Below, piece by piece: positions 1 through 41,739 of a stretch of DNA of 64,000 nucleotides. A program made the position numbers and the translations under genes. How positions within the stretch are numbered: position 1 is the first letter of the stretch; each line of letters starts with the position of its first letter. Under the pieces are notes generated by a model. That model was not told where the DNA came from. It saw only the letters and a program-made list of their open reading frames with translations, and searched no databases. The stretch lies in assembly GCF_058153355.1 (NCBI RefSeq), contig NZ_CM177019.1; one strand, given 5' to 3'.

Positions 1-1560
1 GATCCAGCACCCGTACCTGATAAACGTAGCTGCCGTCGGTCAGCGTGCGGCTGTCAGTGTAAGTCCACTGCGTACCGTTGGTGGTGAGCGTGGTCCAGGT
101 CGCGCCGCCATCGAGGCTAATCTGCGCCACTTCGCCGCTGGCAAGCCCCGCCCCCAGCGAACCGGTCAGCGTGAGCGTGGTATCGCTGGTGATAAAGTCG
201 GTGGCCGAACTCCCCGTATCGGTGCTGATGCTGGCGATGGTGAGCACCTGCACCGGGTTAACGGTGTCAATCTGCGCCGACTGGCTGCCGGTTGCGCCAA
301 CGTTGCCCGCTAAATCAACCACCCGCACCTGCCAGGTGGTGGTGCCGTTGGTCAGCGTACGCCCGTCCACATATGTCCAGTTCAGACCGTCTGCGGCAAC
401 AGTCACGTTCACCCAGGTTGCGCCGTTGTCGGTACTGATTTGCGCGAACTCATTAGCGCCGAGCGCCGCGCCCAGCACGCCGCGCACGGTAAGCGTGGTG
501 TCGCTGGTAATAAAATCGCTGCTGCTGGCTCCGGTGTCATCGCTGATACCGGTAATAGTGATGCTTTTCGCCGCTTCCGGGCTGATGGTGTCGACCACCA
601 CATTTTGCGTCGCGGTCTGCCCGACATTCCCCGCCAGATCCACCACCCGCACCGTGTAGTTCCATGTGCCGTCGGTGAGCGTGCGACTATCGGCATAGCT
701 CCAGCTGGTGCCAATAACGGTTAACGTAGTCCAGGTGACACCGCCGTCGAGGCTGATTTGCGCCCGTTCATCTGCCGCCAGCGCCGCGCCGAGCGTGCCA
801 CGCACGGTCAGCGTAGTGTCACGGGTCACAAAATCGCTGCTGCTTAACCCGGTGTCATCGCTGATGCCCGCAATGACGATGGTTTTGCTCGCCAGCGGCG
901 CGGTGGTATCCACGGTGACTATCTGGCTGGCGGTCGCGCCAATATTTCCGGCGGTGTCGATCACCCGTACCTGATAGTTGTAGTTACCGTCGGTCAGCGT
1001 GCGCCCGTCAAGATAAGTCCAGGTTAATCCATTTACCGCCAGATTCTGCCAGGTGGTGCCGCCATCGATACTGATTTGCGCGAACTCACCAGCAGAGAGC
1101 GCCGCGCCGAGCGTACCACTCACCGCAAGCGTCGTGTCGCTGGTAACAAAATCATTAGTGATCAATCCGGTATCTGTGGTGATCGCGCTGATGGCGATGG
1201 TTTTCACCGCTGGATCTGGCGCGATGGTGTCGATCACCACATTCTGGCTGTCAGTCGCGCCGACGTTGCCCGCCGCGTCAATGACCCGCACCTGATAGAG
1301 ATAATTGCCATCGGTCAGCGTGCGGCTGTCGTTATAGCGCCAGGTCGTGCCGGTAACGGTAAGCGTGGTCCAGGTTACGCCACCGTCGATACTGATTTGC
1401 GCCGTCTCGTTACTGGCAAGCGCGGCGGTGAGCGAGCCGTTGACCGCCACCGGGCTGACGCTGGTGATAAAGTCGCTGGCGCTAAGGCCTGTGTCGGCTT
1501 GCAGGGAATCAATATTAATGCCCATCGCCGGGGCGCTGAGATCGACGGTAATGGTGTGAT
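1..1560 (-). repeat. Second class of roughly 105-aa Ig-like repeats (ISLDGGATW...W.Y.DSRTLTDG.Y type), C-proximal part of the adhesin, continuing off-window
   Basis: Plus-strand alternate-frame ORFs at 78, 708, 1053, 1347 share VVQVxPPSxLICA strings at about 300-330 bp spacing; minus-frame translation at 2-169 and 661-718 gives the motifs. Boundary approximate. Confidence 0.55.
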
Positions 1561-4500
1561 TGCTGCTACCGATGTTGCCAATGGCATTGCTCACCGAAGC
1601 GTTAATCACATAGGCATTGCCGTCCGCCAGCGCGGTGACATCGGCGCTGCCGAGGGTGTAGCTCCAGCTACCACCGGTCTGCACCGTAGTGGTGTAGGTT
1701 TTACCGTTTAAGGTCAGAGTCAGCGTCTGCCCGACTGGGGCGGTGGTGGTGCCGCTGATCACCAAAGACGCGCCGTGTTCCGCCGCGTTCACCACATCAT
1801 CGCCCGCAAAGGTATTGATGGTGACCGTTGGCACGCCGCCATTCAACGTCACGCCACGGCTGGCGCTACCGGGGTTTCCGGCCTGATCGCTGACCGTCGC
1901 GCTGATGGTGTAGCTGCCGTCGCTTAATCCGGCAAACTGCTGCGCCGGAATAAATACCGACCAGCTTCCGCCACTGCCGACCGTTGCGGTCCAGTTTTGT
2001 CCGTTAAAGGTGACGCTCACCGTCTGGCCCGCTTCGGCGGTGGTGGTGCCGCTGATGGTCTGCCCGGCAAGCTGTTCGGCGTTGTTGATAATATCGTCAC
2101 CCGCCACGGTGGCGATGGTCACCGTTGGCGCAACGGTATCGACGGTCAGGGCGTGCGTGGTTTGACCGGGGTTACCCGCACGGTCGTTCACACTGGCGGT
2201 GATGGTCTGCGCGCCTTGCCCGAGTGCTGCCAGATCCGCCACAGGCACGTTCAGCGCCCAGGTGCCATTGGCGGCAACCGTAGCGGTATAGGTTTTGCCG
2301 CCAAAGGTGACAGTGACCGTCTGCCCCACTTCCGCGCTGGTCGAGCCGTTAAGGGTTAACGGCTGCTGCTGTTCGGCGGCGTTGAGTCGATCGTCCGTCG
2401 AAACGGTGTTGATGCTGATAACCGGCGCGGTGAGATCTACCGCCACGCTGCGCGAGGCCGTGGCGCTATTTCCTGCGCTGTCCTGGGCGGAGGCGCTAAC
2501 CGTGTAGCTGGTGCCATCCGCAAGTGCCGCGACGTCTGCCGCCGACACATTCACGCTCCAGCTCCCGTTGTTCTGAATGGTGGCGCTGTAGCCTTTGCCA
2601 TTAAGTAACACGGTCACCACCGTACCTGCGGCAAAGTTCGTTCCGGTGCCGCTCAGGGTCAGCGCACTGCCTGCTTCGGCGGCGTTAATAATATTATCGC
2701 CACTGATGGTGCTGACCGAGAGCGACACCACCGCCGTGTTCACCTGCACGTTGTGCGTCTGCGTGCTGCTGTTGCCTGCGCTATCGGTGATGGTGGCGCT
2801 GATGGTCACCGTGCCGTCCGCAAGGCCGGAAATCACACTGGCTGGCACGCCAACGCTCCAGTTGCCGCTGGCATCGGTGCTGGTAACGTACTGCTGCCCG
2901 GCGATGGTCACCACCAGGCGGTCACCTGCCACCGCGCCCGTGGCGGTGCCGCTGATAATCTGCGCCTGGTTATGTTCGATGTTGTTAATCACATCATCGC
3001 CCGCCACGGTGTTAAAGCTGATGACGGGCGCGGTGGTATCGACGGTGACGCCTTTGCTGGCGCTGCCAGGGTTACCCGCCAGATCGCTGACCGTGGCAGT
3101 CAGGGTGTAGCCGTTATTGGCAAGTGCGGTTAAGTCACTGGCAGGCAGCGTTAAGCTCCAGCTGCCGTCTGCCTGCACCGTGGTCTGGTAGTTAGTGCCG
3201 TTTAGCGTGACGGTGAGCGTTTGCCCGGTTTCCGCCGTGCTGGTGCCGGAAACCGTCACGCCCGCCGCCGCTTCGCTGGCGTTGATGATGTTATCGCTGG
3301 CAATGGTGTTGATGGTCACCGTTGGCGCGGCGCTATCAACGCTGTATTCATGCGTTGTCGTGGCGCTGTTGCCGTTGACGTTAGTCACCCGCACCTGGGC
3401 ACTGGCATCGCCGTCACGCAGAGCCGCCAAATCCGCAGTCGGAACGGTGGTGCTCCAGCTACCGTTAGCCGCCACCGTGGTGGTGTAAGTTTTGCCGCCA
3501 AAGGTAAGGGTAACGGTTTGCCCCGCTTCGACGCCGGATGTGCTACCGGAGAGCGTTAGCGCCGCACCTTTTTCAGTGGCGTTAATCACATCATCGCTGG
3601 TGATGCTGTTCAGGCTGATGGCGACGGTAGTGAGATCAACGGTCAGCGGATGGGTAATGCTGGTTTGTGTTCCGGCACTGTTCGCCCCGCTAACGGTAAT
3701 ATTCAGCGTTCCCGCAGGCCAGTTGCTGACATCCGCCGCCGGAATGCCGACGCTCCAGGTGCCGTTCGCCAACACCGCGGCGGCATAAGTTTGGTTATTT
3801 ATCACCACCGTCAACGCCGTCCCTGGCGCAAAGCCGGAGCTGCTCCCGGTGATCACCTGTGCCTGAGCGTGTTCGATGATATTGACCACATCATCGCCTG
3901 CGACGGTATCTACCCGCAGGCCAGGCAGACTGGCATCTATAGTGATATCGCGCGTGCTGCTGCCGGTATTGCCAACGGCGTTGGTCACCGAGGCGTTAAC
4001 CGTTAATTCACCGTTACCTAACGCCTGCCAGTCAGCGGCTGGTACGCTTACATTCCAGCTTAAATCAGCCTGCACGGTGGCGGTGTAAGTTTTACCGCCC
4101 AGCGTAACGGTGACGGTGCTGCCCGCCGCCGCCCCGGTTACCTGGCCGCTGATGGTTTGTGCGCTACCCGCTTCGGCGGCATTGATAATGTCGTCCGTCG
4201 CCACCGGATTAATGGTGACGCCTGGCAGCGCGGTATTGACCTGCACATTATGGCTGGCAGTACTGCTGTTGCCCTGGGCGTTGGTGACGCTCGCCATCAC
4301 GCTGTAGGTGGCTTCGCCCAGCGCACTGACCGCCGAGGCGGGCACGGTGACGCTCCAGTTGCCGGAGGCATCGGTGGTGGCGCTGTAGTTTTGTCCATTC
4401 AGCGTGACGGTGATCGCCGTGCCCGCAGGCTGATCGCTGGTGCCGGAAAGCGCCAGATTCGATCCTTTTTCCGTCGCGTTGATCACGTCATCGCCCGCGA

Positions 4501-7500
4501 TGGTGTTGATGCTAATCGCTGGCGCGGTGAGGTTAACGGTGACGGTTCGGCTGGCGTCGTCGCTGTTGCCCGCCCGATCGCTGACGCTGGCGGTGATGGT
4601 CTGTGCGCCGCTACTGAGTGCCGCAACATCCGCTGCTGGAACGCCAACGCTCCAGTTGCCGGAGGTATCCAGCGTCGTGGTATACGTTTTGCCATTGAGC
4701 ACAACGCTCACCACATCGCCCGCTTCCCCGCCCGTGCTGGTACCGGAGATCACCAGCGCCTGTGCGTGTTCGGCGTCGTTAATGATGTCATCGCCTGCCA
4801 CGGTGTTAATGGTGAGAACCGGCGCGGTGGTGTCTACCGCCAGATTATGGCTGGCGCTGCCGGGATTGCCCGCTTTGTCGTTGACCGTGGCGCTGACGGT
4901 GTAATTGCTTGCGGTGAGCGCGACCAGGGCTGAAGTGGGAACGCTGACGCTCCAGCTACCGTCCTCCTGTACATTACCGGTGTAAGTTGCGCCGTTAAGG
5001 GTGACGGTGACCGTCTGCCCGGTTTCGGCGGTGCTGGTGCCGCTGATGGTGAGCGGGTTTCCCGCCTCCGTGGCGTTAAGAATATCGTCGCTGGCGATGA
5101 TGTTAATGGTGAGCGTCGGTGCGCTGGCATCAACGCTATACGCATGAGTTGCCGACGCGTTGTTGCCGCTCGCGCTGCTGACACTGGCCTGCACGTTCGC
5201 CGCGCCGTCTGGCAGGCTTGCCAAATCTGCCGCTGGAACGTTCACGCTCCAGCTACCGTTGGCGGCGACGCTTGCGGTGTAGGTTTTGCCGCCAAAAGTG
5301 ACGGTTACGGTTTGCCCGCTTTCAATCCCGCTGGTGCTGCCAGAAAGGGTCAGGTCGGTGCCTTTTTCAGCGGCGTTAATTACGTCATCGCTGGCAACGG
5401 TGTTGATGCTGATTGCCACAGCCGTTAAATCGACGGTGAACGGATGGCTGACGCTGACCGGGTTTCCGGCGCTGCTCTGTCCTGTCACGTCAACGGTTAA
5501 CGGCCCCGCTGGCCAGGCGCTGACGTTTACTGCCGGAATACCGACGCTCCAGCTCCCGTCTGCCTGTACCGTGGCAGAATAAGCCACACTGTTGATGGAA
5601 ACCGTCAGCACAGCACCTGCATTCAGGCCACTACTGCCACCAGTGATCACCAGTGCCTGACCATGCTCGATGCTGTTGACGATATCATCGCCCGCCACGG
5701 TATCCACGCGCAGCCCCGGCAGGTTGGCATCAATGGTGATATCCCGCGTGCCGCTACCGGTGTTGCCATTCGCGTTGGTGACCGAGGCGGTAATGGTCAA
5801 ATCACCATTGCCCAACGCCTGGAGATCGGCTGCCGGAACGCTGACGCTCCAGCTTAAGTTGCCCTGTACCGTAGCGGTGTAAGTGTTACCGCCCAGCGTC
5901 ACGGTGACTGTATCGCCAGCGGCGGCGCGGGTCACCACCCCGCTGATGGTTTGATCGGCCCCGGCTTCGGCGGCGTTGATAATATCGTCGTCCGCCACGG
6001 TATTGATGGTGACGCCTGGCAGGCCGCTGTCGACCAGTAAATTCGCCTGGCTGCTGGCGGTGTTGCCTGCCGCACTGGTGGCGCTGGCGCTGACGGTATA
6101 GTTAGCCTGACCTAAGGCCGCCAGATCGCTCACCGGCACGGTTAAGGTCCAGTTGCCTGCTGCGTCGGTGGTAGCGCTGTAGTTATGACCGTTGAGCGTG
6201 ACGGTAACCTGTGCGCCGGTCGCCAGCCCCGTACTGCTACCGCTGATGGTCAACGGCTGGCCTTTTTCATCGGCGTTCAGGACGTTATCGCTGCTGATGG
6301 CGTTAAAGGTAATGGTCGGCAGCCCGGTATTGACCGTCACCTGATGGGTGGCGCTGCCGCTGTTTCCGGCGGCGTCAGTGACGCTGGCGTTAATGGTCAC
6401 CGTGCCGTTTGCCAGTGCCGAAACAACGCTTGCCGGGACGCCGACGCTCCAGTTGCCGCTGGCATCCAGCACCGTGGTGAAGGTATTTGTGCCGATAGTC
6501 ACCGTCACGGTGTTACCGGTTGCCGCACCAGTGGCAGAGCCGCTGATAATCTGCGCCTGGGCGTGTTCCGTCGCGTTGATCACATCATCACCCGCGACAG
6601 TGTTGATGGTGACGACCGGAACGGAAGTATCCACCGTCAGGTTGTGGTTAACCGAGGTCGGGTTTCCGGCCTTGTCGCTCACCGCCGCGCTGACGGTGTA
6701 GTTGCTGGCGGTCAGAGCGCTTAAGTCGGCTGGCGGTACGCTGATACTCCAACTGCCGTCCGTTTGTACCGTGCCAGTATAGTTTGCGCCATTGAGCGTG
6801 ACGGTCACCGTCTGCCCGGCTTCCGCCGTGCTGCTGCCGGTGATGGTCAGCGCAGCTCCCGCTTCGGCGGCGTTAAGAATGTCGTCGCCCGCGATGGTGT
6901 TGATGGTCACCGTTGGCGCGCTGGCATCGACGCTGTAAGCGTGGGTCGTGGTGGCGCTGTTGCCGTTAACATTACTGACGCTGGCCTGCGCGCTGGCATC
7001 ACCATCACGCAGGGCTGCCATATCTGCCGCCGGAACCGTGGTGCTCCACGAACCATTCGCCGCGACGCTTGCGCTATATGTTTTGCCGCCAAAGGTCACA
7101 GTGACCGTTTGTCCGGCTTCGACACCAGAAGTGCTGCCGGAGAGCGTTAACGCCGCGCCTTTTTCGGCGGCGTTAATCACATCATCGGCGGTAATGGCGT
7201 TGATGCTGACAGCCACCGCCGAGAGATCGACAGTCACCGGATGCGTAACGCTGACCGGGTTTCCGGCGGTAGTGCTGCCGCTCGCCGTAATCGTCACCGC
7301 CCCCGCAGGCCAGGCGCTGACATCCACCGCCGGAACGCCGACGCTCCAGGTGCCATCCGCCAGCACTGCCGCAACATAGGTTTGCCCGTTAATGGTCAGC
7401 GTGACATTGCTACCCACCGCCAGCCCAGAGCTGCTGCCGGTAATCACCAGCGCCTGACCGTGCTCGATAATGTTGACCACATCATCGCCCGCCACGGTAT

Positions 7501-10500
7501 CGACCCGCAGACCGGGGAGATTCGCGTCTATGGTGATTTCGCGCGTGCCGTTACCGGTATTGCCTACGCTGTTCGTTACCGAAGCCGAAATGGTCAGCTC
7601 TCCGTTGCCCAACGCCTGTAACGCCGAAGCCGGAACATCGACACTCCAGCTTAAGTCTGCCTGTACCGTAGCGGTGTACGTCGCCCCACCGAGCGTCACG
7701 GTCACCGTATCGCCCGCCGCGGCCCTCGTGACCTGCCCGCTGATAGTTTGAGTTGCCCCCGCTTCGGCGGCGTTAATAATATCGTCCGTTGCCACAACGT
7801 TAATGGTGACGCCCGGTAGCGCGGTATTAACCTGCACGTTATGGCTGGCGGAACCGCTATTGCCATCAACATCGGTTGCGGCGGCAGTCACCGTATAAGT
7901 CGCTTCACCGAGCGTACCAACCGCAGACGCCGGAACAGTCACGCTCCAGTTCCCGGAAGCATCGGCAGTGGTGGTGTAATTTTGCCCGTTGAGCGTAACA
8001 GTTACCTGCGTGCCCGCAGGCTGGTTGCTGGTGCCGGAAATCGACAGATCCGCGACTTTCTCCGTGGCGTTGATGATGTCATCGACGGCGATGGTGTTAA
8101 TGGCGAGTATCGGTGTACCGAGCGCCACGCTGACAGTGTGCGAGGCCGTGCCGCTGTTGCCTGCGGAGTCGGTAACCGTGGCGGTAATGGTCACATCGCC
8201 CTGGGCCAGCGCGGAAATCACGCTGGCAGGCACGCCGATGCTCCAGTTGCCGTTGGCGTCCAGCACGGTGGTGTAGGTGGTCGTGCCAATCGTCACGGAA
8301 ACCGTGTTACCCGTCGTCGCGCCCGTTGCCGAGCCGCTGATAATCTGCGCCTGAGCATGTTCCGTGGCGTTAATGATGTCATCGCCCGCTACCGTGTTAA
8401 TGGTGACGACCGGAGCGGCAAGATCCACCGTCAGGTTATGCGTTGCCGAGGTTGGGTTGCCCGCTTTGTCGCTGACCGCCGCGCTCACCGTATAGGGGCT
8501 GGCGGTAAGGTCGGCTAAATCGCCAGTTGGTACGCTGACGCTCCAGCTCCCGTCTGCCTGCACGTTGCCGCTGTAATTGATGCCGTTTAGCGTCACGGTC
8601 ACTGTCTGCTCGGCTTCTGCGGTGCTGGTGCCGCTGATGGTCAGCGCCGATCCCGCTTCGGCGGCATTAATAATGTCATCGGTTGCCACTGCGTTAATGG
8701 TAACGCCAGGTAAGGCGCTGTTGACCAGCACATTATGGCTGGCGGAATTACTGTTGCCTGCCGTGTCGGTAACGCTCGCCGTTACCGTGTAGTTGGCTTC
8801 ACCCAACGCGCTAGCTGCCGAGGCTGGAACCGTAGCGCTCCAGTTGCCACTGCTATCGGTGGTAGCGGTGTAATTTTGCCCGTTCAGCGTCACCGTTATT
8901 GTGGTGCCTGCGGGCTGATTACTGGTGCCGGTGATTTGCAGATCCGCGCCTTTTTCTGTGGCGTTAATCACGTCATCGCTGGCGATAGTATTGATACCTA
9001 TCGTTGGCGAGGTGAGATTCACGGTGACCGTACGGCTGGCATCATCGCTGTTGCCTGCTACATCGGTAATTGCCGCAGTGATGGTTTGCGGGCCGCTGCC
9101 CAGCGCAGTGACGTCTGCTGCCGGAACGCCGACGCTCCAGTTGCCGGAGGCGTCCAGCGTGGTAGTGTAGGTTTTACTGTTTAACGTGATGGTGATGACA
9201 TCGCCCGCTTCCCCGCCAGTGCTGGAACCGGAGATCACAAGCGCCTGTCCGTGTTCGGCGGCGTTAATGATGTCATCGCCGGAGACGGTGTTAATGGTTA
9301 AAACTGGCACGGTGAGATCCACCGCCAGGCCGTGAGTGGCGGTCGCCGGGTTACCCGCTTTGTCGCTTACCGAGGCGCTAACCGTGTACGGGCTGGCGGT
9401 CAGATTGCTGAGATCTGTTGTCGGCACGCTGACGCTCCAGCTACCGCCCGCCTGAACGGTGCCGATGTAAGCCACACCATTAAGCGTGACGGTTACCGTT
9501 TGCCCCGCTTCCACGCCGGAAGTACTGCCGGAAAGGGTTAAATCTGCCCCTTTTTCGGCGGCGTTAATCACATCATCGCCGGAAACGGTGTTAATGGAGA
9601 TCGCCACCGCTGCCAGATCGACGGTGACCGGATGGGTGATGGTGGAGGTTGTTCCGGCAGTGTTAGTGCCGCTTACCGTGATATCCACCGTCCCCGCAGG
9701 CCAGTTGCCCACATCTGCTGCCGGAACGCCAAGGCTCCATGTGCCATCGGCTAATACTGTCGCAGCGTAAGTGACCGTGTTAATCACCACCGTCAGCGCC
9801 GCGCCCGCCGCCAGCCCGCTGCTGCTACCGGTTATCACCAGTGCCTGACCGTGCTCGATGCTGTTAACCACATCATCGCCCGCCACGGTATCAACGCGCA
9901 GACCTGGCAGATTGGCATCTATCACAATATCGCGCGCACCGCTGCCGGTATTACCCACGCCGTTGGTTACCGAGGCGTTAACTGTCAGGTCGCCATTACC
10001 GATGGCCTGAATATCCGCCGCCGGAACGTCCACGCTCCAGCTTAAATTGCCCTGCACAGTAGCGGTGTAGGTTTTCCCGCCAAGCGTCACGGTAACCGTA
10101 TCGCCCGCCGCCGCGCCCGTCACCTGGCCGCTGATGGTCTGCGCCACGCCCGATTCCGCCGCGTTAATAATATCGTCGGTCGCCACCGGATTAATGGTGA
10201 CACCCGGCAGCGCGGTATTCACCTGCACGTTATGGCTGGCGGAATTGCTATTGCCCGCGCTGTCGGTGACGTTCGCCGTCACCGTGTAGCTGGCTTCGCC
10301 CAGCGCACCGACGGCAGAGGCTGGCACCGTGGTGCTCCAGTTGCCTGCGGCGTCCGTCGTGGCGGAGTAATTTTGCCCGTTAAGCGTCACCGTAATTGTG
10401 GTGCCTGTTGGCTGATTACTGGTGCCGGAAATTTGCAGATCCGCGCCTTTTTCGGTGGCGTTAATTATGTCATCGGTAGCGATGGTATTAATGCCAATAG

Positions 10501-13500
10501 TCGGCACGGTAAGGTTGACGGTGACCGTATGCGTCTCGTTGTCGCTGTTACCTGCCACATCGGTAACGGTGGCTGTCACGGTTTGCGGGCCGCTGCCCAG
10601 CGCAGAGACATCCGCAGCCGGAACGCCGACGCTCCAGTTTCCGGAGGCATCCAGCGTCGTGGTGTAGGTTTTACTATTTAGCGTGACGCTGACAACATCG
10701 CCCGCTTCTCCGCCGGTGCTGGAACCGGAAATCACCAGCGCCTGCCCGTGTTCGGCGGCGTTAATAATATCATCGCCCGCAATGGTGTTAATGGTCAGTA
10801 CCGGAACGGTGAGATCCACCGCCAGATTATGCGTGGTGCTCGCCGGGTTGCCCGCTTTGTCATTGACCGTCGCCGTCAGGGTATGGCTGCCATCGGTCAG
10901 AGCGGCAAGATCTGCCGCCGGAATATTAATACTCCAGCTGCCGTCGGCCTGTACCGTTGCCTGATAGGTCTGCACAGTTGGGCTGTTAAGCGTTACCGTA
11001 ACAATCTGCCCCGCTTCAGCGGTGGTGCTGCCGCTCACCGTCACGCCCGTATCGGCTTCGCTGGCGTTAACGATATTGTCGCTGGCAACGGTATTGATAA
11101 TGATGGTTGGCGCGCTGCTGTCGACGCTGTAGTTATGCACCGCCGAGGCGCTATTGCCATTGATATTGCTGACGCTGGCCTGCGCGGAGGCGCTGCCCTC
11201 AGGTAATGCTGCCAGATCGGCGGCAGGAACGGTGGCAGTCCAGCTACCATCGCTCGCCACGCTGGCGGTGTAATTTTTCCCGCCAAAGTTGACGGTGACG
11301 GTTTGTCCTGGCTCTACATTAGTGGTGGTGCCGGAAAGGGTTAAATCAGCGCCTTTTTCTGCGGCGTTAATCACGTCGTCCGTGGCGATGGTGTTGATTG
11401 TGATCGCCGCCGGCGTGAGATCCACCGTTACCGGATGCGTAATGCTTATCGGATTTCCGGCGCTACTTTCCCCGGATACAGCAATAGACACCGTCCCCGC
11501 AGGCCAGGCGCTAACCTGCGCCGCCGTGACGCCCACGCTCCAGCTACCATCGGCCTGCACCGCAGTGGTGTATTCCACATTATTAATCGTAACTGTAAGC
11601 GGGGTGCCTTCAGCCAGCCCCGAGCTGCTGCCGGTGACCACCAGCGCCTGCCCGTGTTCGATGATATTGACCACATCATCGCCCGCTACCGTATCGACCC
11701 GCAGACCGGGCAGATTGGCGTCGATGGTGATATCCCGCGTGCCGCTGCCGGTGTTGCCGTTTTGATTGGTGACCGAGGCGCTCACCGTTAAATCACCATT
11801 ACCCAGCGCCTGAATATCCGCCGCCGGAACGCTCACGCTCCAGCTTAAATTGGCCTGCACGGTGGCGGTGTAAGTATTACCGCCCAGCGTAACGGTTACC
11901 GTGTCGCCAACGGCAGCTCCGGTAACCTGCCCGCTGATGGTTTGCGCTACGCCCGCTTCGGCGGCGTTAATAACATCGTCGGCTGCCACCGGGTTAATGG
12001 TCACGCCGGGCAGCGCGCTGTCGACCAGCACGTTATGGCTGGCGGTGGCGCTGTTGCCGATATCGCTGGTCACCGCCGCCGTTACCGTATAGTTGGCCTG
12101 GCCCAGTGCGGTTACCGCCGATGCCGGAACGGTGACGCTCCAGTTGCCGGAGGCGTCGGTCGTGGTGGTGTAATTTTGCCCGTTCAGCGTCACGGTGATG
12201 GCGGTATTAACAGGCTGATCGCTGGTGCCGGTAATCTGGAGATCGGCTCCTTTTTCGCTGGCGTTGATCACATCATCGCCCGCAATGCTGTTAATGCCGA
12301 TAAGGGGCGCAGCGGTATTGACCGTGACAGTCAGTGACTGGCTGCCCGTGTTTCCTGCGCGGTCGGTTACCGAGACGCTGACAGGATAACTGCCGTCCAC
12401 CAGTCCGCTGACAACGGAAGCCGGAACGCCCAGGCTCCAGTTGCCGGAAGCATCTACCACCGTGGTGTAATCCACATCATTCAGCGTAACGGTGACGATA
12501 TCGCCCGCCTGAGCGCCAGTAACCGTGCCGCTGATGATTTGCGCCTGGGTATGTTCCGGCGTGTTAATGACGTTATCGGTCGCCACCGGATTAATGGTTA
12601 CCACCGGCGGCGTGGCATCGACCAGCGCCACGCGTGAAACGTTGCTCGGGTTACCCGCGACATCGTTCACGCTGGCGGTCACCGTGGCGTTGCCGTCAGC
12701 CAGCGCGCCCACGTTGGCGGCGGGAACGGTCACGCTCCAGGTGCCATCTGACTGCACGACGCCCTGATAGGTCTGCCCATTCAGCGTAACGGTCACCGTC
12801 TGCCCCGGCTGAGCGTCGGTGGTGCCCGTGATTTGCAGATCCTGACCACTTTCGGCGGCATTAATGATGTTATCAGCCGTCAGCGAGTCAATGCTTAAGG
12901 CCGGGGCCTGGCTGTCGACGGTAATGGTGCGGGAGGTGTCGCCTGTGTTACCGCTGATATTAGTGACGGTCGCAGTGATTTCCGCCGCACCGTCTGCCAG
13001 GCTACTCACCGCGCTGGCGGGAACGGTCAGGCTCCAGCCGCCACCTGCCTGAACGGTAGTGGTAAAGGTCTGCCCGGCGAATTTCACTACTACGGTTTGC
13101 CCGGTTTCCACCAGCTGCGTGGTACCGGTCAGCGTCAATGGCGCGCCTTTTTCTGCGGCATTGATAATGTCATCGCCGGAGACGGTATTGATGGTAATAA
13201 GCACCGCGCCCGGATTAACCTCCACGTTGCGATCGATAGTAACCGGGTTCCCGGCGGGGTCCGTTGCGCTGGCATTAACCACTATCGTACCCGGCGTCAG
13301 TGCCTGTAGATCTGCCGCAGGCACGCCTACCTGCCAGTTGCCGTTGCTGTCGGTCACCCCCTGGTAGGTGTTGCCGCCGAGCAAAACAGTGACCACTCTT
13401 CCGGCGGGCAAATTAGTACTGCTACCGGTGATAATCAGGTTTTGCTGCTGCTCAACGGCATTGATCACATCATCGCCCGCGATGGTGTCAATGCGCAGCC

Positions 13501-20104: not shown

Positions 20105-22609
20105 ATGTCACAAACTATCGACCTGACCCTGGACGGCCTGTCCTGCGGTCACTGCGTTAAACGCGTGAAAGAAAGTCTCGAACAGCGCCCGGACGTTGAG
20201 CAGGCGGATGTGTCTATCACTGAAGCACACGTTACCGGTACTGCCAGTGCAGAACAGCTGATCGAAACCATCAAACAAGCGGGTTATGACGCATCTGTAA
20301 GCCACCCAAAGGCTAAACCGCTGGCGGAGTCATCAATCCCGTCGGAAGCACTGACAGCGGTTTCTGAGGCGCTTCCGGCAGCAAACGCCGATGACGATGA
20401 CAGTCAGCAGTTGCTGCTGAGCGGCATGAGCTGCGCCAGCTGTGTTACCCGCGTACAAAATGCGCTGCAAAGCGTACCGGGCGTCACTCAGGCACGGGTA
20501 AACCTGGCGGAGCGTACTGCGCTGGTGATGGGCAGTGCCTCCCCACAAGATTTAGTGCTGGCGGTGGAAAAAGCGGGCTACGGCGCGGAAGCGATTGAAG
20601 ATGACGCTAAACGCCGCGAGCGCCAGCAGGAAACCGCCGTCGCTACCATGAAGCGCTTCCGCTGGCAGGCAATTGTCGCGCTGGCGGTAGGTATCCCGGT
20701 GATGGTCTGGGGGATGATCGGCGATAACATGATGGTCACCGCCGACAACCGCAGTCTGTGGTTAGTTATCGGCCTGATAACGCTGGCGGTAATGGTTTTC
20801 GCCGGCGGGCATTTTTACCGTAGCGCATGGAAAAGCCTGCTGAACGGTGCGGCGACAATGGATACGCTGGTGGCGCTGGGTACTGGCGTGGCGTGGCTCT
20901 ATTCAATGAGCGTCAACCTGTGGCCGCAGTGGTTCCCGATGGAAGCGCGACATCTTTATTACGAAGCCAGTGCGATGATTATCGGTCTGATTAATCTCGG
21001 TCATATGCTGGAAGCGCGCGCACGTCAGCGTTCTTCAAAGGCGCTGGAGAAATTACTCGATTTAACCCCGCCGACGGCGCGCCTGGTTACTGACGAAGGT
21101 GAAAAAAGCGTGCCACTGGCAGATGTTCAGCCTGGTATGTTACTACGCCTGACGACCGGCGATCGCGTACCGGTAGATGGTGAAATTACCCAGGGCGAAG
21201 CGTGGCTGGATGAAGCAATGCTGACGGGCGAACCTATCCCACAGCAAAAAGGCGAAGGCGATAGTGTTCATGCAGGTACCGTGGTGCAGGACGGTAGCGT
21301 GCTGTTTCGTGCCAGTGCGGTTGGCAGCCATACTACGCTGTCACGGATCATTCGTATGGTGCGCCAGGCCCAGAGCAGTAAACCGGAAATCGGCCAGTTG
21401 GCGGATAAAATCTCTGCCGTATTTGTGCCGGTAGTGGTGGTGATTGCGCTAGTCAGTGCGGCCATCTGGTACTTCTTTGGTCCGGCACCGCAAATTGTTT
21501 ATACCCTGGTGATTGCCACTACGGTACTGATTATCGCCTGCCCGTGTGCGCTGGGGCTGGCAACGCCAATGTCGATTATTTCCGGCGTCGGGCGTGCGGC
21601 TGAATTTGGCGTGCTGGTACGGGACGCCGACGCGCTGCAACGCGCCAGTACGCTCGACACCGTAGTGTTCGATAAAACCGGGACGCTGACCGAAGGGAAG
21701 CCGCAGGTTGTCGCAGTAAAAACATTTGCTGATGTTGATGAAGCGCAAGCATTGCGTCTGGCGGCGGCACTGGAACAAGGTTCCAGCCATCCGCTGGCAC
21801 GGGCGATCCTCGATAAAGCAGGCGATATGCAGCTGCCGCAGGTCAACAGCTTCCGTACATTGCGTGGGCTGGGCGTGAGCGGTGAAGCAGAAGGTCATGC
21901 GTTATTGCTGGGTAATCAGGCGTTGTTAAATGACCAGCAAGTCGATACTAAAGCGATTGAAGCAGATATTTCAGCCCAGGCATCGCAAGGGGCAACGCCT
22001 GTGCTGCTGGCGGTTGACGGGAAAGCGGTAGCCCTGCTGGCTGTACGCGATCCATTGCGTAGTGATAGCGTGGCGGCGCTGCAACGTCTGCATAAAGCGG
22101 GATATCGTCTGGTGATGCTAACCGGGGATAACCCGACCACCGCCAATGCGATCGCCAAAGAGGCAGGGATTGATGAGGTGATAGCCGGGGTGCTGCCAGA
22201 CGGTAAAGCCGAAGCGATCAAACGTCTGCAAAGTGAAGGACGTCAGGTGGCAATGGTGGGTGACGGCATTAACGACGCGCCAGCACTGGCTCAGGCGGAT
22301 GTCGGTATTGCTATGGGTGGCGGCAGTGATGTTGCCATTGAAACCGCGGCGATTACCCTGATGCGCCATAGCCTGATGGGTGTTGCGGATGCGCTCGCAA
22401 TTTCCCGCGCAACGCTGCGCAACATGAAGCAGAACCTGCTCGGTGCGTTTATCTACAACAGCATTGGTATTCCGGTCGCCGCCGGTATTTTGTGGCCGTT
22501 CACGGGAACACTGCTTAACCCGGTAGTAGCCGGGGCAGCAATGGCACTCTCGTCGATTACCGTAGTGAGTAACGCCAACCGGTTGCTGCGGTTTAAACCG
22601 AAGGAATAA
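20105..22609 (+). CDS. copA: Cu(I)-translocating P1B-type ATPase
   Basis: 834-aa ORF; two N-terminal CxxC metal-binding domains (GLSCGHC, GMSCASC), CPC motif, DKTGT phosphorylation site, GDGINDAP. Confidence 0.97.
20305..20316 (+). other. copA: Programmed -1 ribosomal frameshift site in copA, producing the short CopA(Z) chaperone
   Basis: Slippery heptamer C_CCA_AAG at 20305-20311 at codons 68-70 (verified in frame: ...SHPKAKP). The -1 frame reads CCC AAA GGC TAA, with the stop at 20314-20316. The frameshift itself is established literature, not shown by sequence alone. Confidence 0.7.
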
Positions 22610-22659
22610 GTATGTCATTGCGGATGCGCTGCTTTAGGGTGGCGCATCTGGCATCGACG

Positions 22660-22805
22660 CATGCCTGCCGGATGCGGCATAAACGCCTTATCCGGCCTAC
22701 GATTCAGGCACAGGGTTGTAGGCCTGATAAGACGCGTAAGCGTCGCATCAGGCAATGGTGCTCGGATGCCGGATGCGGCGTGAACGCCTTATCCGGCATC
22801 CGAGA
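22660..22805. repeat. REP/BIME cluster (three REP units) in the copA-ybaP intergenic region
   Basis: Canonical REP palindromes (gcctgccggatgcggcataaacgccttatccggcctac and variants) in alternating orientation; the ORF-track 85-aa ORF at 22612-22869 is the typical REP translation artefact (RMRHKRLIRP). Confidence 0.8.
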
Positions 22806-22937
22806 TGAAGCGAATTTTTGGCCTTACGCGACCTTTTTGCACGTTATTCCCGGCGTGCCAAATATTTAATCCGTCCCAACTCCATTTGCGCCATCCCTCA
22901 CCGCGCGCTAGCATGATATTTCACAAAGGGAGGTCGT

Positions 22938-23732
22938 ATGGATCTGTTGTACCGGGTAAAAACGCTTTGGGCCGCGCTGCGCGGCAATCATTACACCTGG
23001 CCTGCTATCGATATCTCTCTTCCCGACCATCGCCATTTTCATCTGATCGGCAGTATTCATATGGGTAGCCACGATATGGCTCCCCTGCCCACCCGTTTGC
23101 TCAAAAAGCTCAAAAACGCCGATGCGCTGATCGTCGAGGCGGATGTTTCCACCAGCGATACGCCTTTTGCTAATTTGCCTGCCTGCGAGGCGCTGGAAGA
23201 GCGCATTAGCGAGGAGCAATTACAAAATCTGCAACACATAAGCCAGGAGATGGGTATTTCTCCATCGCTCTTTTCTACCCAACCACTATGGCAAATCGCG
23301 ATGGTTCTTCAGGCAACGCAAGCGCAAAAACTGGGGCTGCGGGCAGAATATGGTATCGATTACCAGCTATTGCAGGCGGCGAAGCAACAACATAAACCCG
23401 TGATTGAACTGGAAGGGGCAGAAAACCAGATTGCCATGTTGCTCCAGCTCCCTGACAAAGGACTGGCGCTGCTGGACGATACGCTGACCCACTGGCACAC
23501 CAATGCACGGTTGCTGCAACAAATGATGAGCTGGTGGCTGAATACGCCGCCGCAAAATAATGAAATAACGCTGCCCAATACGTTCAGTCAGTCGCTGTAC
23601 GATGTGCTGATGCATCAGCGAAATCTCGCCTGGCGGGATAAACTGCATGCTATGCCGCCGGGGCGCTATGTGGTCGCGGTCGGAGCTTTACATCTGTATG
23701 GAGAAGGGAATTTGCCGCAGATGTTGCGCTAA
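22938..23732 (+). CDS. ybaP: TraB-family protein YbaP
   Basis: 264-aa ORF matching YbaP by sequence recall and position. Confidence 0.9.
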   Translation: MDLLYRVKTLWAALRGNHYTWPAIDISLPDHRHFHLIGSIHMGSHDMAPLPTRLLKKLKNADALIVEADVSTSDTPFANLPACEALEERISEEQLQNLQHISQEMGISPSLFSTQPLWQIAMVLQATQAQKLGLRAEYGIDYQLLQAAKQQHKPVIELEGAENQIAMLLQLPDKGLALLDDTLTHWHTNARLLQQMMSWWLNTPPQNNEITLPNTFSQSLYDVLMHQRNLAWRDKLHAMPPGRYVVAVGALHLYGEGNLPQMLR

Positions 23733-23935: not shown

Positions 23936-24415
23936 ATGACACCCGCAGTTAAATTACTCGAAAAAAACAAGATTTCGTTTCAAATCCATACCTACGAGCA
24001 CGATCCGGCTGAAACCAATTTTGGCGATGAAGTCGTCAAAAAATTAGGTTTGAATCCGGATCAGGTCTACAAAACGCTGCTGGTGGCAGTGAACGGTGAT
24101 ATGAAGCACCTTGCCGTGGCCGTTACGCCGGTCGCAGGTCTACTGGATCTTAAAAAAGTAGCAAAAGCGCTGGGTGCCAAGAAAGTTGAGATGGCCGATC
24201 CGATGGTCGCGCAGCGTTCGACGGGATATCTGGTTGGGGGGATTAGCCCACTGGGGCAGAAAAAACGCCTGCCGACGATTATCGACGCCCCCGCGCAAGA
24301 GTTTGCCACTATTTTTGTTTCTGGCGGCAAGCGCGGGCTGGACATCGAACTGGCGGCAAGCGACCTGGCGAAGATCCTCGATGCCAAATTTGCTGATATC
24401 GCTCGTCGCGATTAA
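23936..24415 (+). CDS. ybaK: Cys-tRNA(Pro)/Cys-tRNA(Cys) deacylase YbaK
   Basis: 159-aa ORF, YbaK sequence recall. Confidence 0.95.
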
Positions 24416-24420
24416 GCATT

Positions 24421-24444
24421 GTGCCGGATGCGAACATCCGGCAC
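24421..24444. terminator. Hairpin between the convergent ybaK and ushA genes (likely bidirectional terminator)
   Basis: Inverted repeat gtgccggatg/catccggcac with 4-nt loop, immediately after the ybaK stop and before the ushA stop. Confidence 0.5.
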
Positions 24445-24451
24445 TTTCGGA

Positions 24452-26104
24452 TTACTGCCAGCTCACCTCACCTTTCGGTTCATAGACACTCACATCCAGC
24501 GGCGAGTTTTTCTGGATATACGCTTTCAGCACTTCAGCATCAATAAAGCCGGTATTCACATAGCCCGGTTTGTTATCCAGACGCGGATAGCCATCACCGC
24601 CAGTGGCATTGAAGTTTAATGTCGCCATACGGTAAGTTTTCGCCGGATCGACCGGTTCGCCTTTGATTTTCAGGTCGTTCAGTTTGCCGTCTTTCGCCAC
24701 AAAGCTAACGTTGGCAAATTGCGGATAGGCACCAGAATCAGGCTTCATTTGTGCGACGGCGGTCAGGTAATCAATCACCTCTTTACCGGTCATGTCGGCA
24801 TACACCACCACATTGCCGAATGGCTGCACTTTCAGCACATTTTTATAGCTGATATCACCTGCTTCGATAGAATCACGAATTCCGCCTCCGCTCATCACCG
24901 CAAAGTCGGCACCAGTGCGATCCATTTGTGCTGCCAGAATCAACCGCCCCATATTGGTCTGTACAAAACGCACTTTGCTGCGGTCGCCTTCCAGACGACC
25001 ATTGGTTTCGCCTATTTTCACTTCCAGCTGCGCTTTGCCTTTGTTCTGGAACGGCGATAACAGCGAAATAATTTGCTGGTTTTCGGCGATTTCAGGGGTG
25101 TAAAGCACACGCTCGCTTTTCCCGTCTTCCCAGGTCACTTTCTTCTTCAGGTTTACCGGAATCAACTGGTAGTTGACCATTTTCATTTCGCCGTTGCGAA
25201 ACTCAAAGTCGGCCCGACCAACGTACTTGCCCCACTCATGCGCCTGTACAATCCAGATGCCATTTTGTTGATCCGGTTTGCATGGCGTACCAGGAACGTA
25301 ATCGACCTGTTTTTTATTTTCTGCCGCCATACAGACTGGATCTTGCGAGTGACCTCCGACGATCATCGCCAGCGATCCGGCAGGCAGCGCGCGTGCCATC
25401 TCCACATCGCCCGGTGCATTAGAGCCGTGCTCACCGTTGTCGTAATGCCCCATATGGGTCGCCGCGATAATAATGTCTGGCTTTTCTGTCTGTTGCAGCT
25501 CCTGAATCACCAGCTTCGCTTCATCAGCGGGCTTACGAAATTCGATATCAGTGAAGTATTCCGGGTTACCAATTTTGGCTGTGTCATCGGTTGTCAGCCC
25601 AATAACGGCAATTTTCAGATCCTGACGCTTAAACAACGCCCATGGTTTAAACAGGCGCTCACCAGTGCTTTTTTGGTAGATATTGGCGGAAAGCAACGGG
25701 AACTTAGCCCACTTTTCCTGCTGGCGTAATACGGTGAGCGGGTTATCAAATTCATGATTACCGATTGCCATCGCATCATAGCCCACCAGATTCATACCGC
25801 GAAAATCAGGTTCGGCATCCTGTAAGTCGGACTCGGGCACGCCAGTATTAATGTCGCCACCGGAAAGTAGCAGCACGCTACCGCCTTCAGCTGCAACCTC
25901 TTTGCGGATACCATCCACCAGCGTTTTTTGCGCCGCCAGACCATATTCGCCATATTCATTGCGCCAAAAATGCCCATGATGATCATTGGTATGCAGAACT
26001 GTAATTTTGTAGGTTTTATCCTGCTCATAAGCCAGAGCAGTTTCACTCGCCAGTGTAAATGTGGTTAACAGTGCTAACGCCACGCCCCGCTGCAATAATT
26101 TCAT
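24452..26104 (-). CDS. ushA: UDP-sugar hydrolase / 5'-nucleotidase (periplasmic)
   Basis: 550-aa ORF with signal peptide and metallophosphatase motifs (HTNDHHGH, GNHEFD). Confidence 0.96.
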   Translation of the reverse strand: MKLLQRGVALALLTTFTLASETALAYEQDKTYKITVLHTNDHHGHFWRNEYGEYGLAAQKTLVDGIRKEVAAEGGSVLLLSGGDINTGVPESDLQDAEPDFRGMNLVGYDAMAIGNHEFDNPLTVLRQQEKWAKFPLLSANIYQKSTGERLFKPWALFKRQDLKIAVIGLTTDDTAKIGNPEYFTDIEFRKPADEAKLVIQELQQTEKPDIIIAATHMGHYDNGEHGSNAPGDVEMARALPAGSLAMIVGGHSQDPVCMAAENKKQVDYVPGTPCKPDQQNGIWIVQAHEWGKYVGRADFEFRNGEMKMVNYQLIPVNLKKKVTWEDGKSERVLYTPEIAENQQIISLLSPFQNKGKAQLEVKIGETNGRLEGDRSKVRFVQTNMGRLILAAQMDRTGADFAVMSGGGIRDSIEAGDISYKNVLKVQPFGNVVVYADMTGKEVIDYLTAVAQMKPDSGAYPQFANVSFVAKDGKLNDLKIKGEPVDPAKTYRMATLNFNATGGDGYPRLDNKPGYVNTGFIDAEVLKAYIQKNSPLDVSVYEPKGEVSWQ

Positions 26105-29467: not shown

Positions 29468-29650
29468 CATTGCCGGATGCGATGCTGACGCATCTTATCC
29501 GGCCTACAGGTGCCACCTTCCGAAGGTCGGATAAGGCGTTTATGTCGCATCCGACTGTCATTGCCGGATGCGATGTTGACACATCTTATCCAGCATACAG
29601 GTGCCATCTTTCGTAGGTCGGATAAGGCGTTTATGCCGCATCCGACTGTC
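29468..29650. repeat. BIME: tandem duplication of a roughly 90-bp unit containing paired REP elements
   Basis: cattgccggatgcgatg(c/t)tgac(g/a)catcttatcc...gtcggataaggcgtttatg(t/c)cgcatccgactgtc occurs twice in direct tandem between ybaL and gsk. Confidence 0.8.
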
Positions 29651-33760: not shown

Positions 33761-33820
33761 CATGCCGGATGCGGCGCGAACGCCTTATCCGGCCTACAAA
33801 CTGACAAGTTTGTAGGCCTG
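33761..33820. repeat. REP element pair between the lipoprotein gene and adk
   Basis: catgccggatgcggcgcgaacgccttatccggcctacaaactgacaagtttgtaggcctg. Confidence 0.7.
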
Positions 33821-41637: not shown

Positions 41638-41739
41638 TGCCTGATGCGCTACGCTTATCAGGCCTACACCGCTCCTGCAATATATTGAATTCTTGCGGTT
41701 TCGTAGGCCGGATAAGGCGGTCACGCCGCATCCGGCATG
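41638..41739. repeat. REP element pair downstream of ybaM and mscK (convergent gene ends)
   Basis: gcctgatgcgctacgcttatcaggcctaca and cgtaggccggataaggcggtcacgccgcatccggcatg. Confidence 0.7.

Follow-up and report, generated by a model that had tools for sequence, protein, structure and literature searches.

The gene ybaQ of Escherichia coli K-12 (b0483) codes for an orphan HigA-family antitoxin / transcription factor. YbaQ was one of the transcription-factor candidates examined with ChIP-exo, and a binding motif was derived from its peaks (Gao et al., bioRxiv 10.1101/343913). In strains of phylogroups B2 and F the gene belongs to the type II module higB-1/ybaQ, in which YbaQ is the repressor of higB-1 and its antitoxin, and the region upstream of the operon is the YbaQ-bound operator; ybaQ is essential only in strains with higB-1 upstream of it, the higB-1 toxin has been lost in most phylogroups, and both higB-1 and ybaQ have been lost in phylogroup D (Rousset et al., bioRxiv 10.1101/2020.05.25.114553). 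A second class of described elements, the BIME-2 clusters, consists of y and z2 REPs in inverse orientation joined by short linkers, and their copy number is strain-variable (Ton-Hoang et al., PMC3333891). In the present study, the spacer between copA and ybaP in a stretch of 64,000 nucleotides of E. coli-like DNA (the window) was compared with these systems.

In the window, the gene for the copper-exporting P-type ATPase, copA, is an ORF of 834 aa on the plus strand (20105..22609), and ybaP, encoding a protein of the TraB/GumN family (Pfam TraB_PrgY_gumN, E 3e-43), is an ORF of 264 aa on the same strand (22938..23732). Both names follow the annotation of the matching loci in RefSeq genomes of E. 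coli, and for YbaP the assignment was also made with Pfam. According to these ORF coordinates the spacer comprises 328 bp (22610-22937), and ybaP is followed by ybaK (23936..24415, plus strand) and ushA (24452..26104, minus strand). The original prediction, according to which this interval holds neither ybaQ nor any HTH-like translation, was correct in its coordinates and in its content: the spacer ORFs of 85, 87 and 41 aa gave no Pfam match, while YbaQ itself matches HTH_3. The gene order given there for K-12, with a ybaQ of about 113 codons in the spacer, agrees with the K-12-type locus of strain CJ236, in which copA and ybaP are 794 bp apart and a ybaQ gene of 342 nt (113 aa), annotated as 'HigA family addiction module antitoxin', is located on the strand opposite to copA. 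That ybaQ is antitoxin-like, belongs to the XRE family and varies between strains is confirmed by the HTH_3 match in Pfam, by the RefSeq annotation and by Rousset et al. The tblastn search with YbaQ that had been proposed was run within the 64-kb window and returned a single weak match, which is the spacer itself, and no homologue elsewhere. With the HigB-like toxin of strain AR_0089 as query, tblastn and blastn gave chance-level matches only in the same 64 kb.

The alignment of the interval, likewise proposed beforehand, was carried out against the K-12-type and the toxin-antitoxin-type alleles and exposed the 3′-end of ybaQ at a deletion. By alignment and blastn, a minus-strand ybaQ remnant of 56 nt that still contains the stop codon was located at 22824..22879; its counterpart in K-12 ybaQ is the final 69 nt. 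In the blastn comparison, nt 299-342 of ybaQ including the stop codon matched 22866..22824 (91%, E 7e-8) and nt 274-285 matched 22879..22868 (12/12). The lesions of the remnant are an in-frame deletion of 12 nt, the nonsense change GAA>TAA and the frameshift T6>T5, and its translation reads LGRIKYLARRE followed by the stop, compared with LGRIETVAEYLARREERAKKVA and the stop at the end of YbaQ. A chance or REP-related similarity at 22824-22879 is unlikely, because the stop codon of the remnant has the same distance to the REP cluster as in K-12. As in a pseudogene or a deletion scar, significant DNA homology is combined with disabling lesions, and relatives have an intact gene at the orthologous site.

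At the deletion junction (22879-22880, AATCCGTCCCAA-CTCCATTTGCG) the remnant is fused directly to the ybaP upstream block (22880..22937, plus strand), which is identical or nearly identical in all Escherichia alleles and partly kept in Citrobacter and Salmonella. Compared to the K-12-type allele, 352 bp are gone, namely 273 nt of ybaQ and 79 nt upstream of it, and CCAA microhomology is present at both breakpoints; compared to the toxin-antitoxin allele, the gap amounts to 685 bp with CAA at both ends. Since a ybaQ stump of 56 nt has been kept, the absence of the gene is due to a deletion in this lineage and not to a never-occupied site. The spacer is thus very probably the scar of an old deletion of ybaQ, a HigA-family antitoxin gene formerly present there, with the BIME-2 cluster retained and the allele shared by a minority of E. 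coli. With the K-12 ybaQ locus it has in common the flanks, the hairpin after copA, the BIME-2 cluster, the ybaP upstream block and the position of the ybaQ 3′-end; it differs from it in being 352 bp short and in carrying a decayed stump of 56 nt in place of the intact 342-nt gene, and K-12 additionally has one more 101-bp y-z2 unit.

The comparison with the higB-1/ybaQ module of phylogroup B2/F strains revealed the same chromosomal site, the same antitoxin gene family and a likewise clade-wise loss. However, AR_0089 carries a toxin gene (Pfam HigB-like_toxin, PF05015), whereas the window has neither a toxin gene nor a functional antitoxin, and the toxin-antitoxin allele of the AR_0089 type has no REP cluster, unlike the window. 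Instead of an intact HTH (XRE/HTH_3) antitoxin ORF only the 56-nt stump with its nonsense change and frameshift was found, a RelE/HigB-like toxin ORF upstream of the antitoxin is missing, and the region which in the toxin-antitoxin allele contains the palindromes GCACTGTGC / TGCACAAGTGCA is absent, as the junction abuts CTCCATTTGCG.

The original prediction had described the spacer as filled by nothing but three REPs and the ybaP promoter. This holds for the REPs; the ybaQ remnant has to be added, and the promoter scan was empty. Scanning of 22500-23050 for promoter and terminator consensus sequences gave no sigma-70-like site at the threshold and no T-run terminator. The Shine-Dalgarno sequence of ybaP, AAGGGAGG, lies within the upstream block 22880..22937, and the conservation of this block makes the weak promoter candidate TTGCGC-17-TAGCAT in it possible. 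Directly 3′ of the copA stop codon, RNA folding predicts a hairpin with a 12-bp stem and a 4-nt loop (22622..22649, plus strand), whose sequence is common to all Escherichia alleles, including the REP-less ones. It may be the 3′ end structure of copA, for which a terminator role is only surmised. For the copA 3′ region as RNA (22607-22830) the fold prediction gave a minimum free energy of -120 kcal/mol with z = -7.96.

The first of the three predicted REPs is of the y type (22667..22700, plus strand; 2 mismatches to the y consensus) with inverted-repeat arms, the second is of the z2 type in inverse orientation (22718..22753, minus strand; 1 mismatch to the z2 consensus), and the third is again of the y type (22768..22801, plus strand; 2 mismatches to the y consensus) and ends with CATCC, not CCTAC. 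The types were assigned by a Hamming scan against the y/z2 consensus of Bachellier/Gilson. A direct repeat of 60 nt with a spacing of 101 nt was found in the cluster. The Rfam model naRNA4 (RF02564), which was built on the REP pair of REP325, matched at 22721-22798, with the z2 unit inside the match, and reached 84.6 bits at a gathering score of 59.5; beyond this REP-derived model the Rfam search of the spacer gave no match. The imperfect palindromes of ~35 nt fit the y and z2 consensus with a GTAG/CTAC foot and alternate in the order +, -, + with a 101-nt period and short linkers in the extragenic copA-ybaP position, where their number differs by strain. Three REPs are present in the window, five in the K-12-type allele, none in the toxin-antitoxin type and two each in SMS-3-5, with (GCCGGAT)2, and AR_0013, with (GCCGGAT)4. 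The cluster thereby resembles BIME-2 clusters such as REP325 / naRNA4 in its alternating inverse y and z2 units, its extragenic position 3′ of a gene and its variable copy number, but it comprises just 1.5 units and is known here as predicted stable hairpins. The tandem heptamer GCCGGAT replaces the third REP in SMS-3-5 (1316-1625 of the locus sequence) and AR_0013 (1308-1631), which both share the junction of the window; the array derives from the stem of the REP and forms a small repeat of variable number. Other REPs of the window are located at 29472-29646 (a degenerate cluster downstream of ybaL), at 33764-33797 and at 41639-41736 (a BIME-1-like z1 + y pair).

Among 5426 complete E. coli genomes, ybaQ was present at a coverage of at least 80% in 4831, a HigB-like toxin gene was found beside it in 1266, and no ybaQ match whatever was obtained in 592, so that about one genome in nine lacks the gene. 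With 4838 places in 4834 E. coli genomes, it is essentially a single-copy gene. The junction of the window was recovered as one contiguous match in 44 of the 5426 genomes, including WL297, SMS-3-5, CE10 and AR_0013. The strains SMS-3-5 and CE10 presumably belong to phylogroup F, which sits awkwardly with the F strains described to carry higB-1 and ybaQ. TW10590 and Z570, two of initially 46 junction matches, were rejected because each match consists of two pieces that span a ybaQ which is intact or poorly assembled; homopolymer frameshifts are numerous in TW10590. The bases of the remnant vary among the carriers of the junction (GTTATTCCC in the window, GTTTTTCCC in WL297 and GTTTTCCCC in SMS-3-5), from which it follows that the deletion is old and that the stump is drifting, as expected for neutrally evolving DNA.

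At least two further alleles resemble the window in having no ybaQ between copA and ybaP, but their spacers and junctions are different and they represent independent events. The STO_Bone2-type allele (347 genomes) has a 428-bp spacer without ybaQ remnant, with an E. albertii-like right flank and with a GC-rich RRS/TRIP1-like repeat of ~270 bp, and the SCU-482-type allele, whose spacer measures 171 bp, is joined at a different point, retains only 22 nt from the 3′-end of ybaQ and lacks REPs. The SCU-482 type was left uncounted, because split matches were joined by the search, and ~200 ybaQ-less genomes fall outside the classed alleles. The GC-rich repeat (1545-1815 in the locus sequence of STO_Bone2, 11745-12015 in that of R32_14_1F) is 94.5% identical to the aqpZ-lysO element of a K-12-like strain, and the aqpZ-lysO position is one of the RRS/TRIP1 'replication risk sequences' (Pham et al., PMC10592627); the 347 STO_Bone2-type genomes thus seem to hold an extra RRS-like copy near copA. 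The absence of ybaQ in the window is an instance of an already known and published polymorphism, in which a degenerating toxin-antitoxin locus of the chromosome is present in some strains and absent from others. The present analysis adds the precise scar, how frequent it is, and the finding that there are several independent loss alleles.

The window around copA-ybaP is 95-97.5% identical to most E. coli; for 10000-34000 the best values among the 5426 complete genomes were 97-98%, with ~95% to K-12. The adk gene is 99.7-99.8% identical to that of 18 genomes, and only these 18 share an allele of at least 99% identity. Due to this high divergence and the small number of genomes with a similar adk, the source seems to belong to an E. 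coli lineage that has seldom been sequenced. By their flanks, R32_14_1F and EC42405 are nearest to the window (97-99.5%) and have the 428-bp spacer of the STO_Bone2 type; the spacer of the window is ~99% identical to that of WL297 (3 of 331 bases differ), yet the flanks of WL297 reach only 96-97%. As flanks and spacer have different closest relatives, the locus is mosaic, and the import of one or the other spacer allele by recombination is plausible. A transfer of the scar allele by homologous recombination from an SMS-3-5/WL297-like E. coli lineage, with which the adk identity of 99.7-99.8% to both groups is compatible, would refine the explanation by deletion and not replace it. Its chance is placed somewhat short of even, as the comparison covers only a few kb per genome and the reverse, an import of the STO-type allele by the relatives, is equally possible.

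Further variation was observed in the neighbourhood. Between ybaK and ushA a gene with DUF6896 is present in WL297 (3840-4401 of the locus sequence), in AR_0089 (4381-4942) and, together with a hypothetical gene, in EC42405 (13646-14946), and the window has, like K-12, only a spacer of 36 bp (24416-24451), so that this interval, 1.5 kb from the ybaQ site, is a second place where the presence of genes is polymorphic. A gene for an outer-membrane protein of the TolC family (15923..17278, minus strand) is located upstream of ybaT, and beyond it, in the region 1-17278, a giant minus-strand ORF runs off the start of the window. In the closest relatives this ORF is annotated as BapA-related adhesin SiiEA (~20.8 kb), and in matching genomes as SiiEA or as Ig-like domain protein.

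The polarity of the change was assessed with outgroups and other Escherichia. In 40 species representatives (Citrobacter, Salmonella, Klebsiella, Enterobacter, Trabulsiella and others; the type genomes of E. fergusonii, E. marmotae and E. ruysiae are absent by name) copA and ybaP are ~100-150 bp apart without a YbaQ match, and E. albertii has a spacer of 265 bp with neither ybaQ nor a detectable remnant. These genomes would also suit a window that had kept the ancestral, never-occupied site, with ybaQ inserted in K-12 and most E. coli. This reading is very improbable, as an unoccupied site would contain nothing of the 56 nt of ybaQ 3′-end and stop codon that the window retains, and the genuinely empty right flank of the STO_Bone2 type of E. 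coli, which resembles that of E. albertii, looks unlike the window. From the lack of ybaQ in the outgroups and E. albertii it is therefore concluded that ybaQ was acquired within Escherichia, with its loss here coming later. Hence, the two possibilities left side by side in the original prediction can be separated: a lineage-specific deletion is supported by the ybaQ 3′ remnant, and an insertion in K-12 is true only on the deeper time scale of the outgroups. An assembly or sequencing artefact, e.g. a collapse across the REP clusters, which are repetitive and differ in copy number between alleles, has a negligible probability, since the identical junction was seen in 44 independently assembled complete genomes, sits in unique sequence outside the REPs and is flanked by intact ORFs.

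E. whittamii has no ybaQ, and beside its REPs the promoter-proximal sequence known from the toxin-antitoxin allele is kept at 29 of 30 nt; judged by its sequence it is another, independent deletion, and it provides evidence that a form with REPs and toxin-antitoxin genes once existed. The ybaQ of the species representative Escherichia sp. E1V33 (3315-4000 of the locus sequence) carries a separate small deletion close to its 3′-end, so that the YbaQ match is restricted to residues 1-93, and it shows the T5 / GTT..CCC 3′ variant also found in the remnant of the window. It may represent an intermediate, pseudogenised state.

For the deletion of ybaQ in the window the following course is proposed. 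The ancestral locus would have carried ybaQ, coding for a HigA-family HTH antitoxin / transcription factor, convergent with copA, and may also have carried the partner toxin gene higB-1. One deletion between the CCAA/CAA microhomologies would have removed 273 nt from the 5′ part of ybaQ together with all sequence upstream of it, as far as a point ~58 bp from the ybaP start codon, possibly by replication slippage or illegitimate recombination, as suggested by no more than the 4 nt of microhomology. The last ~69 nt of ybaQ would have been left behind and would later have decayed by the 12-nt deletion, the nonsense change and the loss of 1 nt. The y-z2-y BIME-2, once flanked by the 3′-ends of the convergent genes copA and ybaQ, was presumably kept and would now form part of a strongly structured copA 3′ region. 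The scar allele is old and may have entered this genome via homologous recombination, not by strict vertical descent. The parent allele could have been the orphan ybaQ form (352-bp deletion) or the toxin plus antitoxin form (685-bp deletion), and the REP cluster favours a K-12-like parent. The loss of an antitoxin by deletion can be tolerated only when the toxin has disappeared before or disappears with it, and both scenarios fit. The outcome would be the absence of the YbaQ regulator with no toxin remaining to control. As the ybaP upstream block and the REP hairpins 3′ of copA are intact, no effect on the neighbouring genes would be expected.

For annotation, ybaQ is not to be expected between copA and ybaP here, and the 85-aa ORF running through the REPs should not be called. 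The junction, present in less than 1% of the complete E. coli genomes, is usable as a lineage marker. The locus is a small and clean example of the decay of a toxin-antitoxin system, in which the toxin is lost first and the antitoxin next, with scars beside a REP cluster. Tentatively, and with rather more doubt than confidence, the copA-ybaP spacer may be regarded as a recurrent rearrangement hotspot in Escherichia, with at least four independent losses of higB-1/ybaQ (the window type, the SCU-482 type, E. whittamii and possibly the STO_Bone2 type), with shifts in REP number and with an extra RRS/TRIP1-like element in one allele. If true, the repeated loss of orphan ybaQ would argue against a conserved toxin-independent function of YbaQ and would oppose the suggestion that the retention of ybaQ in K-12 implies another role.
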